Of a stretch of DNA of 52,704 nucleotides, positions 4,755-50,662 are shown one piece after another. How positions within the stretch are numbered: position 1 is the stretch's first letter; the number at the start of each line of letters is the position of its first letter. This stretch comes from Methanobacteriota archaeon (GTDB taxonomy: Archaea; Halobacteriota; Bog-38; Methanoflorentales; Methanoflorentaceae), in NCBI GenBank assembly GCA_963719035.1, contig CAVRAO010000010.1, forward strand, positions 1 to 52,704. Reading direction: 5' to 3'. Below the pieces are notes generated by a model. That model was not told the DNA's origin and made no database searches. It worked only from the letters and a program-made list of their open reading frames with translations. Made by a program: the position numbers and the translations under genes.

Positions 4755-5123
4755 GTGTGTAATCAAAACCGTTGTAGGTGTTGGGAAACGTATCCGGAAC
4801 GCAGTTGGATTCAGTTTTTGACGCTCCGGATTCTCTATGAAACCCCGACTTACGGGTATCAGCTCCTTGACGAGATTGAAGAACGAACCTGTGGCTGTCA
4901 TAAGCTGGAGCCCGGCAGCATCTATACGGTGCTGCGGCGGATGGAAGCGAAGGGATGGTTGGCATCGGCGTGGGAACGGGGTGATTCCGGCCCGGACAGG
5001 AGAGTGTATACCGTGACGGAGAGGGGTGGTGAAGTCCTGAAGACGGGGCTGAGCACGATCGTTCGGCGGAAACAGCTCTTTGACGATTTGATCGGGTTTT
5101 ACGAAAGGCGTTTTAAGGAGTAA
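4755..5123 (+). CDS. PadR family transcriptional regulator
   Basis: PTYGYQL, PGSIYTVLRRMEAKG, GPDRRVYTVTERG. GGAG precedes the GTG start. Confidence 0.93.
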   Translation: MCNQNRCRCWETYPERSWIQFLTLRILYETPTYGYQLLDEIEERTCGCHKLEPGSIYTVLRRMEAKGWLASAWERGDSGPDRRVYTVTERGGEVLKTGLSTIVRRKQLFDDLIGFYERRFKE

Positions 5124-5142: not shown

Positions 5143-5403
5143 ATGTGTGGAGGAGAAAATTATCACTCATCTGAGGGCTGTTCCTGCGGTTGCAGTTCTG
5201 GATGCAGCTGTGGCTGTGGCGGACATCATGGCCATCACGGGCACCATGAGCACGGAATGGGCGCAGGGATGCACCATGGAATGGAATTTGCGTTGCCGCT
5301 GATGGACGTTGACGAAGAGATCAAGATGCTTGAAGAGTACAGAGACTCTCTAAGCGCGCGTCTTGATAAGGTTAAAAAGCGGCTTGAGGGTCTTAAACGC
5401 TAA
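5143..5403 (+). CDS. Small Cys/His-rich protein with C-terminal coiled coil (DUF5320-like)
   Basis: GGAGG upstream. GCSCGC twice, HHGHHGHHEH, then EEIKMLEEYRDSLSARLDKVKKRLEGL. Confidence 0.85.
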   Translation: MCGGENYHSSEGCSCGCSSGCSCGCGGHHGHHGHHEHGMGAGMHHGMEFALPLMDVDEEIKMLEEYRDSLSARLDKVKKRLEGLKR

Positions 5404-5468
5404 AGCAGCACGTCAAAGGCGCTTTTTTCCCCAGGCGACTGTGCTATACGCTTAATACAGCGCTTTAT

Positions 5469-5484
5469 CGCTAAAGTTTATAAA
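5469..5484 (+). promoter_or_regulatory. Archaeal BRE/TATA promoter of the Cys-rich peptide gene
   Basis: CGCTAAAG followed by TTTATAAA (5477-5484), about 100 nt upstream of the ATG at 5585. Confidence 0.55.
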
Positions 5485-5584
5485 TCTTGCAAAAGAGATT
5501 TATACGATCGTGTGAAGGTACAACCTAACGAAGCTGCACTGAAGGGAGACAATCAAGCTCGACGTATGCGTTGGAGGAAAGAAG

Positions 5585-5869
5585 ATGAAAAAACCAATTA
5601 TTTTTGTATTGGCGCTATTCGTAGCCCTTTCGCTGTTCACGGCGATGAACGTGTCAGCTCAGTGTGCTGCGACGACGACCTGTCCATCGACCACGAGCGC
5701 TCAGTGCACGAGCTGCACCACCTCATCGTGCTGCTGCTGTCCGTGCCCCGTTACGTGTCCGACCGCATGCCCCACAACAGCCTGTTGTGCAGTGGCGTCC
5801 AGTGTTGTGACCTCGTGCGGCCACTGCGCCTGGGATCCCTATAATCAGGGCTGGATCTGGGTGTCGTAA
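5585..5869 (+). CDS. Secreted Cys/Thr/Ser-rich small protein, unknown family
   Basis: GGAGG RBS. Sec signal MKKPIIFVLALFVALSLFTAMNVSA, then a 69-aa mature part with 15 Cys and a WDPYNQGWIW tail. Confidence 0.85.
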   Translation: MKKPIIFVLALFVALSLFTAMNVSAQCAATTTCPSTTSAQCTSCTTSSCCCCPCPVTCPTACPTTACCAVASSVVTSCGHCAWDPYNQGWIWVS

Positions 5870-6315
5870 CGCAGGCTTTAAGACGATAACAGCTAGCGCT
5901 TGAGCTGGAGCACGCGTACAGTTTAAAGGTATTTTTGTACGCGTGCTGAGAGTTGTGTAGATTGCACGGAGCTCTATCAGTAGTATCGAGTTGCATTTTG
6001 CTTATTTGCGCGGTGAGCGTGCGTGCCACTGACAAATCTGTGCATTCGCGGTTTTGACGGGCGTTACCGATCAACCGCGTCGTTTTTCGAATTTCATACT
6101 CTAGATGCACTTGATCGATCGACGGTCAGCCAGCTCGCTTTAATTACGTCAAATATTTTTTAAAATCAATTAGATATATCAAACGCAAACTATGTCGTGA
6201 TTCTCTTCTGTCGGGTCGCTGACCGATGGCACAAGCGATTACGCGTCCTAGCCGCGGTAACTGCTCTTGACGGTTCTGAAAACGCGGTAAGGTTTGGGTC
6301 ATCTTGGCCATCTTT

Positions 6316-7830
6316 TTACTGTAGCCGCTTACGGTCGGGCTCGGCTCGCAGCAGCTCACTGAGATCTTTCACGATTAACGTCGGAAATTCGTCCTCATCC
6401 AAATCGTCGATCTGCTCGCGCGTCGTTTCACCGCTTAATACGCAAATAAAACTGCATCCGACGTTGTGTGCCATCTTCCCGTCGGTATACAATCGATCAC
6501 CAACGATAGTCATCTGACCCACGCCATATTGCTCAGTAACGCGCTCCAACAAGCGGGGGCTGGGTTTGCCAAAGACCGCTGTGGGTCGTCTACCCGTCGT
6601 CTTTTCGAGCACCGCTAGGATGCAGCCACAGTCTGGGACAAATCCAAGTTCAGATGGGCACACGAGATCGGTGTGCGTCGCAAGAAACAGCAAACGCGAG
6701 TTCTGCTGCAGCAATATCGCGGCGGCTCGCAGCTTGTCGTACGTGAGCTCAGTGTCGTACGCTACGATGAGCGCCTCACACGCGTCAGGATCTGCGGTCA
6801 GCTGCAGTTCTGGTAGCGCCTGTCGCAGATATGCTTCAAACCGGACGTTCCCGAGCAGGTACACGTTGCGTATGGAGCGCGCTTGCAGGCATGCAATCAA
6901 CGGCTCGAGCGGCGTAATGATGTGGTCGCCGTCGACTGGGATGCCCATCGCATTGAGCCGAAGGCGATAGTCCTCAGGAAGCTTTGACGTGTTGTTGGTG
7001 ACAAAATAGAACGCCCGTTCACGAGCGTTGCGGTCGATGAATTCAAGCGTGCCGCGTATGGGTCGATCTCCCACGTATACCGTTCCGTCCAAGTCGAGGA
7101 CGAAACAGTGCGTGTTGGACAAGGTGAAACGGCTAAATCGCTTGTCGGCGTCGCACAAGTCGTCCATCGAGCGAATGGCGGCCCAATTGACGCCGGCGAC
7201 ATCAGCAAGCGTTACCCGCACGGTGCGGACGAGATCGTTGAGTGCTTTTGCCATTGACACATCTGTTTCAACAGCGCGTTTTGCTACGACGCGTTTGAGG
7301 GTAGCGACCGCACGAGCGTTGAGCTTCCATACGTCAGCTGAGACTGCCGTGACCCCCTCCGTGGTGACAGTCGCGTTGACGCGAACGACGCGTCCGCTCT
7401 GTACCAGTATCGCAGCGCCGCTGGATCGACCCGTATCGCCTGCAACGGCGTTTGTGCTGGACCGTGTCAGCTCTTCGATCAGGCGATAATCATACATGCA
7501 TTCGCCGTTGCTGACGAATAGGCCCTCTTTGTCGAATTCCGCGGTCTGAAGGGCGAGGTGCAACGAAAGCGCAACGTTCTTTAAATGATAGTCGGCATTT
7601 TTCACAAGGCGTATCTCAGGGTGCACGCGCTTCAGAAAGCGTTTGATAGCGTTGTGGTGGTAGCCTGAAACGACTATAATGGACCCCTCGGCGATTCCAG
7701 CCTTCAGATAACTCAGTATCTGATGTTCGAGCAGCGGAATTCCGTTGATCTTAATTAAAGCGCCTGGTTTTCGGCTGTTGAGTGGTCGCAACTCCCTATT
7801 ATCGTTCTCAGCGAGGATGATGGCTTTCAT
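6316..7830 (-). CDS. Fusion of a degenerate LicC-like nucleotidyltransferase domain and a HAD-IIA (NagD-like) phosphatase
   Basis: N-terminus MKAIILA...LRPL...KP.ALIKING. C-terminal HAD motifs DLDGT, TNN, GKP, GDRLYTD, VLSGET. Confidence 0.88.
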   Translation of the reverse strand: MKAIILAENDNRELRPLNSRKPGALIKINGIPLLEHQILSYLKAGIAEGSIIVVSGYHHNAIKRFLKRVHPEIRLVKNADYHLKNVALSLHLALQTAEFDKEGLFVSNGECMYDYRLIEELTRSSTNAVAGDTGRSSGAAILVQSGRVVRVNATVTTEGVTAVSADVWKLNARAVATLKRVVAKRAVETDVSMAKALNDLVRTVRVTLADVAGVNWAAIRSMDDLCDADKRFSRFTLSNTHCFVLDLDGTVYVGDRPIRGTLEFIDRNARERAFYFVTNNTSKLPEDYRLRLNAMGIPVDGDHIITPLEPLIACLQARSIRNVYLLGNVRFEAYLRQALPELQLTADPDACEALIVAYDTELTYDKLRAAAILLQQNSRLLFLATHTDLVCPSELGFVPDCGCILAVLEKTTGRRPTAVFGKPSPRLLERVTEQYGVGQMTIVGDRLYTDGKMAHNVGCSFICVLSGETTREQIDDLDEDEFPTLIVKDLSELLRAEPDRKRLQ

Positions 7831-44575: not shown

Positions 44576-44864
44576 GAACATGAAAAAAAGTGGTCCTGTT
44601 GATCATTTGCCCGAAAGTGCGCAATTACGGTCACGTTCTTTCGTGGTTGCGCTATAAACGCGACGAATTCTGGCGGATACATGATTTCTTATAGGGCTGG
44701 TTTGAAAGTAGTAAAGTAGCTCTCCAGCGCATTACACTTTAGTGCGCGCTGGGTTTAACGGCTTAGATCACGCAAAAATGGAATGGGCTGCGAGCGTCGA
44801 TGCGTGCCATTATGAGGTCGTCGCGACTGGCGTCCTCAGGCGCGACGCTGTGGGCGGGTGCATA

Positions 44865-45917
44865 GTGCAGACGGTAAAGGTGGGTGATAAGGCGATCGGG
44901 GATGGAGAGCCCTGTTTTGTTATCGCTGAGGCAGGCGTCAATCATAACGGGAGTTTCGAGCTCGCAAAGAGACTCATCGACGTAGCTGTAAAGGCAGACG
45001 CGGACGCCGTCAAGTTCCAAACGTTTCGAGCCGATGCGATAGCGACCCCCGAAGCGCCAAAGGCCATTTATCAAAAAGAAACTACTGGCGATGACCCACA
45101 GCTTTCAATGTTAAGGGCGCTGGAACTTACGTCGGAAGACTTCAAAGGGTTATATCACTACGCAAATGAGGTCGGAATAATCTTTCTATCGTCGCCATTC
45201 GATTTGGCAAGCGTTGATCTCCTCAGAGAACTTGGCGTTTCGGCGTACAAAATTGGATCAGGAGAGCTAACGAACCGACCGTTGCTCTTGCACGTCGCAG
45301 AACAGAAGAAGCCAATCATCCTATCGACGGGTATGTGTTCATTAGACGAGGTGCGCGACGCGGTCCACGCACTAAGGAGCCATAATGTGTCTGACCTGAT
45401 CCTCCTGCACTGCGTGTCAGAATATCCTGCCCGCGCCGAGCATGCCAACTTGCGGGTGATTGCGACGTTAAAACGAGCGTTCGATGTACCTGTCGGATTC
45501 TCCGATCACACAGCCGGGATCGTGGTACCTATTGCAGCGGCCGCTGTGGGGGCTAACGTTATCGAAAAACATGTTACCATCAGCAGATCTCTTCCAGGTC
45601 CCGACCAGCACGCGTCGTTAGAGCCTCACGAACTCCAGCAGATGGTCCAGTCTATTAGGATTGTCGAGAAGGCCCTCGGTGACGGCACAAAATGCCCCAC
45701 AAGAGGTGAAGTCCGCATGAAGGTGTTCGTGAGACAGACGCTAGTGGCCGAAACCGAAATCGCACAGGGAACTGTTATACAAAAGGAAATGCTCACCTCC
45801 AAACGTACGGGCGATGCGCTTGGGATTACACCTGCGGACATCGACCGCTTTATCGGTAAGAAAGCGACACAGCAAATCAAGAAGGGAAAGGCAGTCACAT
45901 GGCAAATGGTCGAGTGA
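44865..45917 (+). CDS. neuB: Nonulosonic acid synthase (NeuB/LegI family) with SAF domain
   Basis: IAEAGVNHNG, DAVKFQTF, KIGSGE, ILSTGM, LHCVSEYP, GFSDHT, IEKH, GPDQ.ASLEP. Confidence 0.93.
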   Translation: MQTVKVGDKAIGDGEPCFVIAEAGVNHNGSFELAKRLIDVAVKADADAVKFQTFRADAIATPEAPKAIYQKETTGDDPQLSMLRALELTSEDFKGLYHYANEVGIIFLSSPFDLASVDLLRELGVSAYKIGSGELTNRPLLLHVAEQKKPIILSTGMCSLDEVRDAVHALRSHNVSDLILLHCVSEYPARAEHANLRVIATLKRAFDVPVGFSDHTAGIVVPIAAAAVGANVIEKHVTISRSLPGPDQHASLEPHELQQMVQSIRIVEKALGDGTKCPTRGEVRMKVFVRQTLVAETEIAQGTVIQKEMLTSKRTGDALGITPADIDRFIGKKATQQIKKGKAVTWQMVE

Positions 45918-49849: not shown

Positions 49850-50662
49850 TCAAACCGTTGAATAGATATCTCGCTTTATTGTCTCTATTTGTTTCTCGTT
49901 TTCCGCGTAAACGCGATCGATTTGCGCCTTGAGCTCGGTTGCCATCTCTCTCTGAATACAGTTCGCGTTGAGTTTTGCGAGCTCCGGGCGTTCACCGAGA
50001 TAGTCCATGACATCGTACAAATCTAACACAGTGTTGAAAGGCACGTGCGAGTAGATGTTGCTGATGAGCTCATAGTCCTCCTCATAATCCAACGTAAGCC
50101 GCAAATCAGGCCTGTTGAGTTTGTCTCTGACCGTGACGGTCTTTATGCTGAAGATTTCAGGTTTGTTCAATAGATACGCCCAGAATTCTGAGTCAGCGGT
50201 AGGCTTTAAGCGATCGATGATCTCGAATGCGTTCACTCGCACTCCGTACGTAGCCACACCCAACGGCAGTCCTTCCAGCTTAATAAAATCGTAGCATCCT
50301 CTCTTGGCTTCATTCGCGATGACGTTCGAGTAATGGATTGTGAGAAGCGGGTTGTCGGCGGTGATCGCTAAGAAATAGTCCAAGTCGAAGAATTTTGCTG
50401 CTTGAAGTAACCGTCGTACAACGTCGGTTTCATCGCCGACAAAGTAATACGCACCGTTGTTCAGTGCCGCATCTATGAGCGGTCTGTCTTGCGGGTTCGT
50501 TGAGGTGCACAGAATAACGTCTGATAAATATTTAACCTCCTTCGCCCTCTCGATGACCCGATCGATGACAGTCTTTCCCCGCAACGGTTTAAGAAGTTTA
50601 AGCGGCAATCGTTTTGATTTCAGCCGCGCCGTAACCAAGAAACCGATCCGCACGTCGATCAC
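49850..50662 (-). CDS. SpsF/KdsB-like cytidylyltransferase (CMP-nonulosonate synthetase role inferred)
   Basis: TARLKSKRLPLK, GDETDVVRR, ITADNPL, RLTLDYEEDY. Confidence 0.88.
   Translation of the reverse strand: MIDVRIGFLVTARLKSKRLPLKLLKPLRGKTVIDRVIERAKEVKYLSDVILCTSTNPQDRPLIDAALNNGAYYFVGDETDVVRRLLQAAKFFDLDYFLAITADNPLLTIHYSNVIANEAKRGCYDFIKLEGLPLGVATYGVRVNAFEIIDRLKPTADSEFWAYLLNKPEIFSIKTVTVRDKLNRPDLRLTLDYEEDYELISNIYSHVPFNTVLDLYDVMDYLGERPELAKLNANCIQREMATELKAQIDRVYAENEKQIETIKRDIYSTV

Follow-up and report, generated by a model that had tools for sequence, protein, structure and literature searches.

In Chlamydia, a cell without a conventional wall, the envelope is cross-linked through disulfides by OmcA/EnvA, an exported lipoprotein of about 9 kDa with a lipobox and about 15 cysteines. 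The high- and ultra-high-sulfur keratin-associated proteins cross-link the hair matrix through disulfides in the cytosol of dying eukaryotic cells; metallothioneins are likewise cytosolic, carry no signal peptide and are poor in aromatic residues; and the archaeal peptide halocin C8 is released from the C-terminal end of a far longer precursor, which provides immunity as well. The subject of this analysis is an open reading frame (ORF) of 94 codons at positions 5585..5869 (plus strand) of contig CAVRAO010000010.1 from a methanogenic archaeon, and "the window" denotes positions 1 to 52,704 of the forward strand of that contig. We propose tentatively, with a probability of about 0.4, that this ORF encodes an unfolded, probably O-glycosylated, thiol-cross-linked envelope matrix protein of Candidatus (Ca.) Methanoflorens, a reading drawn from sequence features and gene neighbourhood.

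The comparisons with Chlamydia, keratin-associated proteins and metallothioneins are functional analogies, and none of these proteins is homologous to the window protein. By description, OmcA/EnvA is similarly small, exported and similar in Cys count; the window protein differs in being Thr/Pro-rich, and it has no lipobox because its cysteine follows VSA-Q. With the keratin-associated proteins it shares a low-complexity Cys/Ser/Thr/Pro composition, CC-x-P repeats, a variable repeat number and the lack of a globular fold, but those proteins have no signal peptide, AQCTSC motif or aromatic tail. Metallothioneins match it in Cys density, in CC, CxC and CxxC motifs, in variable Cys number and in being unfolded without ligand, whereas the window protein is Sec-exported, Thr/Pro-rich and aromatic at its end, and matches no metallothionein family. 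We know of no sheath in the host genus, which is uncultured. Membership in a sheath or surface layer (S-layer) found no Pfam or PDB match, and AlphaFold gave no fold.

Two published systems come closer in habitat or chemistry. Disulfides are proposed (PMC10593813, PMC11576556) to hold the rings of the Methanospirillum sheath together, which provides a precedent for extracellular disulfides in a strict anaerobe. Like the window protein, that sheath concerns the envelope of a strictly anaerobic methanogen, strengthened in the proposal by extracellular disulfides; the sheath protein SH, however, is described as a large, beta-rich, amyloid-like protein with two cysteines, and it has no sequence match to the window protein. 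PMC6098224 treats Ser/Thr-rich clusters in the surface glycoproteins of archaea as places of O-glycosylation. The clusters of haloarchaeal S-layer glycoproteins described there resemble the window protein in being Ser/Thr-dense, Sec-exported and accompanied by AglJ-like synthases, but they are short parts of large proteins and hold no Cys, whereas here the whole 69-aa chain is of this kind and 22% of it is Cys. The features of the functional class of disulfide-cross-linked envelope matrix proteins (exported, small, Cys-dense and encoded with envelope genes) were all found. We rate as new what would be the first such small, exported, Cys-dense envelope protein in archaea, its Thr/Pro-rich and probably glycosylated form, and its partnership with DUF4012/DUF4352 proteins; a literature search that covered few subscription journals, judged by title and the opening of the abstract, gave no description of the family among the papers listed.

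A preliminary description of this DNA had reported a 94-aa product, and direct re-reading of the sequence gave the identical precursor. Its N-terminus consists of an MKK n-region and an 18-residue hydrophobic core followed by NVSA/QC, where the slash marks the predicted cut. The 25-aa general secretory (Sec) signal named in that description has the n-h-c layout by eye, with VSA at positions -3 to -1 in 57 of 66 distinct family members and Q as the first mature residue in 45 of the 66, so that the cleavage site is a prediction supported by family conservation. Archaeal type IV pilins carry a class III signal, cut at [KR]-[GA] before a hydrophobic stretch that is retained in the mature protein; no such signal was found in the window protein, which begins MKKPIIF, its basic residues being followed by neither G nor A. 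The mature chain has a mass of 7010 Da and a pI of 5.1, and comprises 15 Cys, 13 Thr, 9 Ser (22 Ser/Thr in total), 8 Ala, 6 Pro, 1 Asp, 1 His and no Lys or Arg. All four of its aromatic residues lie within the last twelve positions. The double SAQC (residues 24-27 and 38-41), the CCCC run (49-52), the near-zero charge and the aromatic end noted earlier are all present. Tandem Repeats Finder returned no repeats in the ORF.

This N-terminus also bears on the possibility that the protein is the precursor of a ribosomally synthesized and post-translationally modified peptide (RiPP), with lanthionine, thiazole or thioether cross-links and with the apparent signal peptide as leader. Its Ser/Thr and Cys composition resembles lanthipeptide and thiazole/oxazole cores, the N-terminal 25 residues are unusually conserved across subtypes, and in genome G010 a frameshifted copy has a radical SAM gene of the B12-binding type about 3.5 kb away. 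The layout is nevertheless that of a Sec signal ending, by eye, in VSA/Q and not that of a separate leader type. The host genome, at 91% completeness, has no LanC-like domain, its single YcaO gene (C2:275856-276791) lies 507 kb from the nearest paralog, and no LanB-N was found in it, though the LanB-N control gave no match in any genome. The preliminary description had seen no radical SAM, YcaO or lanthipeptide enzyme in the window, which holds for the 48 window ORFs scanned with Pfam, and its dismissal of a modified RiPP agrees with our own view that this origin is barely credible.

The pattern of substitution shows that 5585..5869 is a real gene under purifying selection. The ratio of nonsynonymous to synonymous divergence (dN/dS, Nei-Gojobori) against three orthologues was 0.15-0.31, and it lay between 0.07 and 0.49 in 12 of 13 pairs; the remaining pair, the tandem long copies of the host genome, gave 0.82 on very few changes. 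When the 8,211 genomic ORFs with 60 aa or more are ordered by Cys fraction, the precursor comes fifth, and a GGAG-type site stands upstream of all 18 members whose upstream DNA was inspected.

Three metatranscriptome runs from two studies contained assembled contigs over parts of the ORF. One study supplied two of them: a 174-nt RNA contig over 5727-5894, which has 3 mismatches and takes in both the copy-specific tail and the stop, and, in another run, a 167-nt contig over 5727-5893 with 5 mismatches. The 602-nt contig of the other study aligns to 5606-5748 with 6 mismatches, and the part that extends it on the 5' side matches the start of the second host copy on contig C2. Contig depths were highest (65 and 54) over the conserved core 5692-5748, and stretches left uncovered in these runs carry no weight. 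At the protein level, the lack of Lys and Arg makes trypsin-based metaproteomics blind to the mature chain, so that its absence from such data is meaningless; this blindness may explain why so unusual a protein went unnoticed.

The search for homologs suggested in the preliminary description was run by sequence and by profile. A word-indexed search gave 3 relatives, and a profile search of 1.84 billion cluster representatives gave 13 proteins at E <= 0.001, all with the same module. Whole-genome searches covered 17 other genomes of the genus and 6 of the sister genus, which with the window's own make 24 genomes, the entire class as sampled; the family was present in 10 of the 17 and in none of the 6. 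The seven same-genus genomes without a match are 59-87% complete. In a 401-genome sample of the phylum, four weak matches (E 3.5e-4 to 1.8e-3) were all that appeared outside the organism family, and three of these sit inside long unrelated frames. A scan of metagenome contigs added 109 relatives, of which 80 loci were retained, and metagenome and genome loci combined gave 66 distinct complete proteins, 44 of them short forms. Paralogs and orthologs are thus numerous in genomes and metagenomes, whereas the preliminary description had named a lack of homologs as grounds for abandoning its proposal. As judged from these searches, the protein family is confined to one genus. The GTDB genus "Bog-38" is equated with Methanoflorens stordalenmirensis in PMC10805028, and a preprint identifies the family Bog-38 with Ca. 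Methanoflorentaceae / Rice Cluster II, obligate hydrogenotrophic methanogens abundant in northern bogs. On this basis we infer that the host is a member of Ca. Methanoflorens.

The family showed no kinship with described proteins. Pfam at E up to 0.1 gave no family match for the window protein, metallothioneins included, NCBIfam gave only sub-threshold matches to the signal peptide, and no family member reached the threshold of either. A PDB profile search with the family returned no chains at E up to 10, and the best ESM Atlas score was 0.76, with no usable named match; the preliminary description, too, had recognised no family. AlphaFold with the family alignment gave the short form a mean predicted local distance difference test score (pLDDT) of 47.8, with residues 22-79 below 50 and a weak C-terminal hairpin (strands 80-84 and 89-93, pLDDT about 60); the long form scored 42.7.

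In an alignment of 14 sequences (A3), C41, C49 and C50 show no variation and C44 and C67 almost none; about 5 of the 15 Cys columns of the window protein are fixed or nearly so. Between the conserved cysteines, CPxx units vary in length by insertions and deletions (alignments A1 and A3). The Cys count of the mature chain ranges from 7 to 23 across the family. The odd count stressed earlier is true of the window protein, with its 15, but fails as a family trait, being odd in 31 and even in 35 of the 66 members. The variable Cys number and the lack of a predicted fold argue against a knottin-like fold with a fixed disulfide map. An antifreeze-like Cys/Thr beta-helix, after the model of the beetle protein, was considered and set aside: the Cys spacing is aperiodic and the models show no fold. 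Over the first 55 residues of the mature part, 91% are T, C, A, S, P or V, and N-glycosylation sequons are absent from all 44 short forms. A C-terminal [WFHY]xPY motif is present in 41 of 66 members, and an assembly or docking role for it is plausible from its conservation. The modelling and alignments together suggest that the mature chain is probably compositionally constrained and extended, with two specific motifs (AQCTSC and [WFHY]xPY).

Across the family, a constant signal and Cys/Thr/Pro module is joined to variable C-terminal parts: short aromatic, His-run, Q/N/T-rich, helical-repeat or Cys-repeat. The closest relative of the window gene, metagenome locus L043, is 85% identical and has the same aromatic tail. 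Some relatives carry 100-aa Q/N/T-rich tails and others tandem Cys-containing repeats, and longer paralogs of 170-283 aa contain the same module. A conserved exported "handle" with diverse "heads" is what would be expected of a surface module that attaches or cross-links proteins. Among the variants, the metagenome short forms L090 and L092 end in PPHHHHH(H)PY, with 5 or 6 His replacing the aromatic motif, and L097-L101 have the Cys module followed by 2-5 copies of a 19-aa helical repeat (GQLSPEDLMKMKALLQQYE), the number varying among contigs, and then a Thr/Pro/Glu-rich tail.

These family traits also speak to the idea, put forward in the preliminary description, that the protein is an archaeocin, a disulfide-rich antimicrobial peptide released against competitors. 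The family is indeed small, secreted, Cys-rich, lineage-specific and multi-copy, with a variable C-terminus. The mature chain is nearly uncharged, however, the family has no fixed Cys framework, the same module recurs in the 170-283-aa paralogs, and no recurrent immunity, dedicated export or processing gene lies nearby. The comparison with halocin C8 was made by description only: that peptide is likewise archaeal, exported, Cys-rich and small, but the window precursor is a signal plus 69 aa with no immunity-like part. We regard an archaeocin as very improbable. Of the three options offered earlier, the cross-linked envelope or fibre subunit is the one we favour, the metal chelator is weighed below as an unlikely alternative, and the archaeocin finds no support beyond Cys richness.

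The gene neighbourhood is the strongest line of evidence on function. In relatives, the short form stands head-to-head with a two-gene unit, a DUF4012 gene followed by a DUF4352 gene, both for extracytoplasmic proteins; the DUF4012 protein has about 420 aa and an N-terminal membrane anchor, and the DUF4352 protein about 190 aa, anchored and Ig-like. Short forms occur in 8 species genomes, and in 6 of these DUF4012 lies inside the examined flank of one; it does not in the window's genome and in G010. Among 63 short-form metagenome loci, with flanks of at most 2.5 kb and many contigs shorter, DUF4012 is present in 38, DUF4352 in 29, an AglJ-like family 2 glycosyltransferase (GT2) in 24 and the nucleotidyltransferase/HAD gene in 7. 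Short form and DUF4012 are divergent in all 45 loci where both starts are visible, with start-to-start distances of 424-1577 nt (median 670).

Three further observations are independent of strain redundancy among these loci. The DUF4012 orthologue has the same range as the protein family (10 of 17 genomes in the genus, none of 6 in the sister genus) and is found in each of the 7 other genomes with short forms. In three genomes DUF4012 was detected but no short form was (G007:C64, G014:C233 and G011:C222), and there the contigs stop 0-290 nt upstream of DUF4012, exactly at the expected partner site; assemblies seem to break at this multi-copy gene family. On contig C4 of genome G009 (L140 215-808, minus strand), P0015 stands head-to-head with a DUF4012/DUF4352 paralog pair whose DUF4012 is 47% identical; P0015 is another Cys/Thr/Pro-rich secreted protein, of 198 aa with 19 Cys, containing TCPVTTCPVTTCPTTCAC and carrying TCPVTT repeats, C-terminal NGNPVY-type repeats and an FNPY end. 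Other DUF4012/DUF4352 paralog pairs have small secreted ORFs in the same position (L135 804-1064; L142 687-968). PDB profile searches with DUF4012 and with DUF4352 gave no match for either, and Table 1 of PMC5412050 lists a DUF4012 gene in the exopolysaccharide locus of Bifidobacterium. The tie to this family would give DUF4012 its first functional partner.

Export, lack of a fold, thiol and hydroxyl density, the two motifs, the variable heads and the genomic ties together led us to infer an O-glycosylated, Cys-cross-linked envelope component. In the mechanism we envisage, signal peptidase would cut the precursor at VSA/Q and the 7-kDa mature chain would stay extended; its 22 Ser/Thr could then be O-glycosylated with lipid-linked sugars from the products of neighbouring genes. 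The 15 thiols would form intermolecular disulfide or metal-bridged links to other copies, to longer paralogs or to other envelope proteins, giving a covalently netted matrix or glue, and AQCTSC and the aromatic [WF]xPY tail might serve as recognition points for the DUF4012/DUF4352 partners. The least secure part of this proposal is the exact chemistry, whether disulfide, metal bridge or free-thiol coat. According to PMC10805028 and the preprint, the host genus is a dominant hydrogen-using methanogen of northern peatlands and thawing permafrost, and the family offers a lead to how its surface is built and how it responds to oxygen pulses, peat phenolics and metal scarcity.

Several points weigh against an envelope cross-linker. 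The location, glycosylation and disulfides of the protein are all predictions from sequence and gene neighbourhood, and the host is a strict anaerobe of a reducing habitat. No VKOR and no oxidising partner was identified in its genome, where the DsbA/DsbB families were not searched; the two or three DsbD/CcdA-type reductive thiol-disulfide transporters it does encode indicate that extracytoplasmic thiol chemistry is provided for. The counts of 38 in 63 and 45 in 45 overstate independent support because many loci are near-identical strains, and 14 of the 63 short-form loci, most of them contigs of less than 3 kb, show none of the four neighbour genes. Neither host-genome copy adjoins DUF4012: the pairing is broken in this genome, where the window copy follows the PadR/DUF5320 genes and the C2 copy closes a 45-kb island whose DUF4012/DUF4352 genes are 37 kb from it. 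The RNA libraries have no DNA control, so that carry-over is possible and the contigs lend weak support to transcription. Finally, the CxxC of every member and the His-run tails fit metal binding equally well.

That last point leads to an extracellular or surface metal binder, a secreted metallothionein-like thiolate sponge. It would scavenge thiophilic trace metals such as Ni, Co, Zn and Cu for a methanogen whose bogs hold little of them, or would buffer toxic metals such as Hg, Cd and Cu. Besides the 22% Cys, CxxC occurs in 66, CC in 59 and CxC in 51 of the 66 members; the variable Cys number without a predicted fold is as in apo metallothionein; L090 and L092 have their His runs; and a Cys/His-rich DUF5320-like protein, a PadR regulator and an ABC-2 exporter are encoded directly upstream in the window. 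The chain is nonetheless Thr/Pro-rich with a conserved aromatic tail and, as noted, has no Pfam match, to metallothioneins or otherwise. The genes that recur beside family members are DUF4012/DUF4352 and glycosylation genes, with no metal transporter or uptake receptor among them, and the PadR/DUF5320 adjacency is unique to the window. Among the papers listed by a literature search on extracellular metallothioneins in archaea or methanogens, none describes such a protein in its title or the opening of its abstract. We consider a metal binder unlikely. Less likely still is a surface-held, glycosylated metallophore coat, with His-run variants, that harvests Ni, Co and thiophilic metals from acidic peat, in which DUF4012/DUF4352 would pass the metals on or tether the sponge; if true, it would help to explain the dominance of the genus in the methane production of northern bogs.

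The longer family members occupy another setting. Long, helical-repeat and Cys-repeat forms share a conserved locus flanked by two peroxiredoxin genes, one of the 1-Cys and one of the Bcp type; close by are genes for a methyltransferase and a 102-aa protein as well as rhodanese and MBL-rhodanese genes. The host genome and three relatives show this arrangement, as do 9 of the 12 metagenome loci of this kind, and DUF4012 was absent from all 12. This location speaks for a sacrificial thiol shield, in which surface thiols would quench oxygen pulses, peroxides and peat-phenolic quinones before they reach the membrane, and the DsbD/CcdA-type transporters could keep outside thiols reduced. Short forms, the window gene included, are nevertheless never in the peroxiredoxin locus (0 of the 63 loci, counting the peroxiredoxin/methylase set), and the peroxiredoxins have no evident signal peptides, so that the linkage may be mere synteny. 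A thiol shield overlaps the envelope matrix proposal instead of excluding it; as the role of the window protein we find it improbable.

The coordinates of the gene and of the features around it are collected in the following table.

Features at and around the ORF 5585..5869 (positions in the window)
Feature	Position	Strand	Remarks
T6 run after stop of upstream DUF5320-like gene	5423..5428	+	read by eye
BRE/TATA-like CTAAAG-TTTATAAA	5471..5484	+	about 100 nt upstream of ATG, by eye
GGAGG ribosome-binding site	5573..5577	+	7 nt before ATG
Duplicated segment	5573..6258	+	686 bp; C2:783341-784027, 93.6% identical
Sec-type signal peptide, residues 1-25	5585..5659	+	predicted cut VSA/Q, by eye and family conservation
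Mature 69-aa Thr/Cys/Ser/Ala/Pro-rich chain	5660..5866	+	stop codon 5867-5869
AQCTSC, family CxxC motif, residues 39-44	5699..5716	+	64/66 members; invariant columns in A3
CCCCPCP core, residues 49-55	5729..5749	+	start of length-variable CP-repeat stretch; alignments A1, A3
Aromatic tail WDPYNQGWIWVS, residues 83-94	5831..5866	+	weakly predicted beta-hairpin
Perfect 13-bp hairpin, 40 nt past stop	5909..5947	+	probable 3'-end element
Nucleotidyltransferase/HAD-phosphatase gene	6316..7830	-	syntenic right-hand neighbour; first gene of glycan island

The T6 run is likely an archaeal terminator, which would leave the ORF as its own transcription unit. A promoter and ribosome-binding site of its own, as the preliminary description had claimed, could be located in the TATA-like box, preceded by a putative B recognition element (BRE), and in the GGAGG; promoter signals were read by eye, a sigma-70-type promoter and terminator scan being bacterial and inapplicable to an archaeon. 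The box is specific to the window copy, because homology with the C2 copy begins only at about 5573. The 91-nt stretch of the hairpin has a folding energy of -32 kcal/mol (z = -2.3), and the C2 copy keeps the hairpin. Rfam gave no match on 5300-6400. A minus-strand ORF at 5751..6110 was rejected as a gene, its counterpart in the C2 copy being shortened to 58 aa.

The host genome, which is 91% complete, contains 4 full paralogs of the family and some lesser matches. The second short form, on contig C2, encodes a protein 96% identical; in the mature coding part the two copies differ by 2 bases, both synonymous, while the downstream flank is far more changed. A 189-nt homopolymer A/T run at C2:785312-785500, 1.2 kb from this copy, probably arose in assembly. 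The two longer paralogs of contig C8 (162890-163468, L004, and 165086-165646, L003; 192 and 186 aa) have the signal and Cys module in common with the window gene, followed by a Q/N/G-rich tail, and a methyltransferase gene lies between the two. Contig C6 has one weak family match, containing stops. First in the genome by Cys fraction is C11:82549-82740 (63 aa, 13 Cys, three CCPPPVT units), a divergent piece of the same family; the in-frame sequence upstream has no signal peptide, and the piece is possibly a remnant.

Short forms sit within large surface-glycan gene islands, and in relatives their neighbours also include family 1 (GT1) and GT2 glycosyltransferases, UDP-glucose dehydrogenase, epimerases, GalU and a MoxR/DUF58 cluster; the GT2 resembling AglJ or dolichyl-phosphate-hexose transferases scores 194 bits against a cut-off of 325. 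The window copy retains the right-hand synteny, with the nucleotidyltransferase/HAD gene, a cupin-type GPI, GalU and UDP-glucose dehydrogenase. By Pfam scan, the window from 6.3 to 52.7 kb is a single surface-glycan island. Its glycosyltransferase genes number more than 8 for GT2 and two for GT1, and it also encodes two flippases of the Wzx type, GDP-mannose dehydratase, a polysaccharide deacetylase and DUF1616 and DUF2206 membrane proteins. It further encodes NeuB (44742-45917), a UDP-GlcNAc 2-epimerase, two DegT aminotransferases and a CMP-sugar cytidylyltransferase (49850-50662); NeuB, the epimerase, DegT, a PseB/CapD-like protein and the cytidylyltransferase would form a nonulosonic-acid set.

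On the left of the ORF, alongside the ABC-2 exporter, lies a PadR regulator (4755-5123), followed by an 86-aa protein (through 5403). The N-terminus of that protein is rich in Cys and His (CSCGCSSGCSCGCGGHHGHHGHHEH), and its coiled-coil end resembles DUF5320, though at E 1.7e-4 the match stays under the Pfam cut-off. Contig C6 carries a second copy of the pair, 80% identical in DNA. As a partner of the ORF the pair was rejected: none of the 80 metagenome loci and no other genome locus examined has it, and it has that copy of its own.

Upstream of the ancestral short-form loci (L002, L007, L008, L009 and metagenome loci; alignment A7), a GCAAA-TATATATA box is conserved about 165 nt before the ATG, and much of the 5' untranslated region is conserved too, including GCGTGAAGGCACGC and GGGCTTGA...TCAAGC elements. 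Since synonymous sites have almost reached saturation, such conservation outside the coding sequence stands out. A conserved stem seen there by eye was discarded after RNAalifold gave no pairs.

Lastly, the second short-form copy of genome G010 (contig C77; L018/L032) and that of L079 have signal and mature part in different frames, with the shift, read directly, near the cleavage site. In L077, L078, L080 and L085 the match span is identical to that of L079. The frame-shifted copy is either a pseudogene or a shared sequencing or strain feature.

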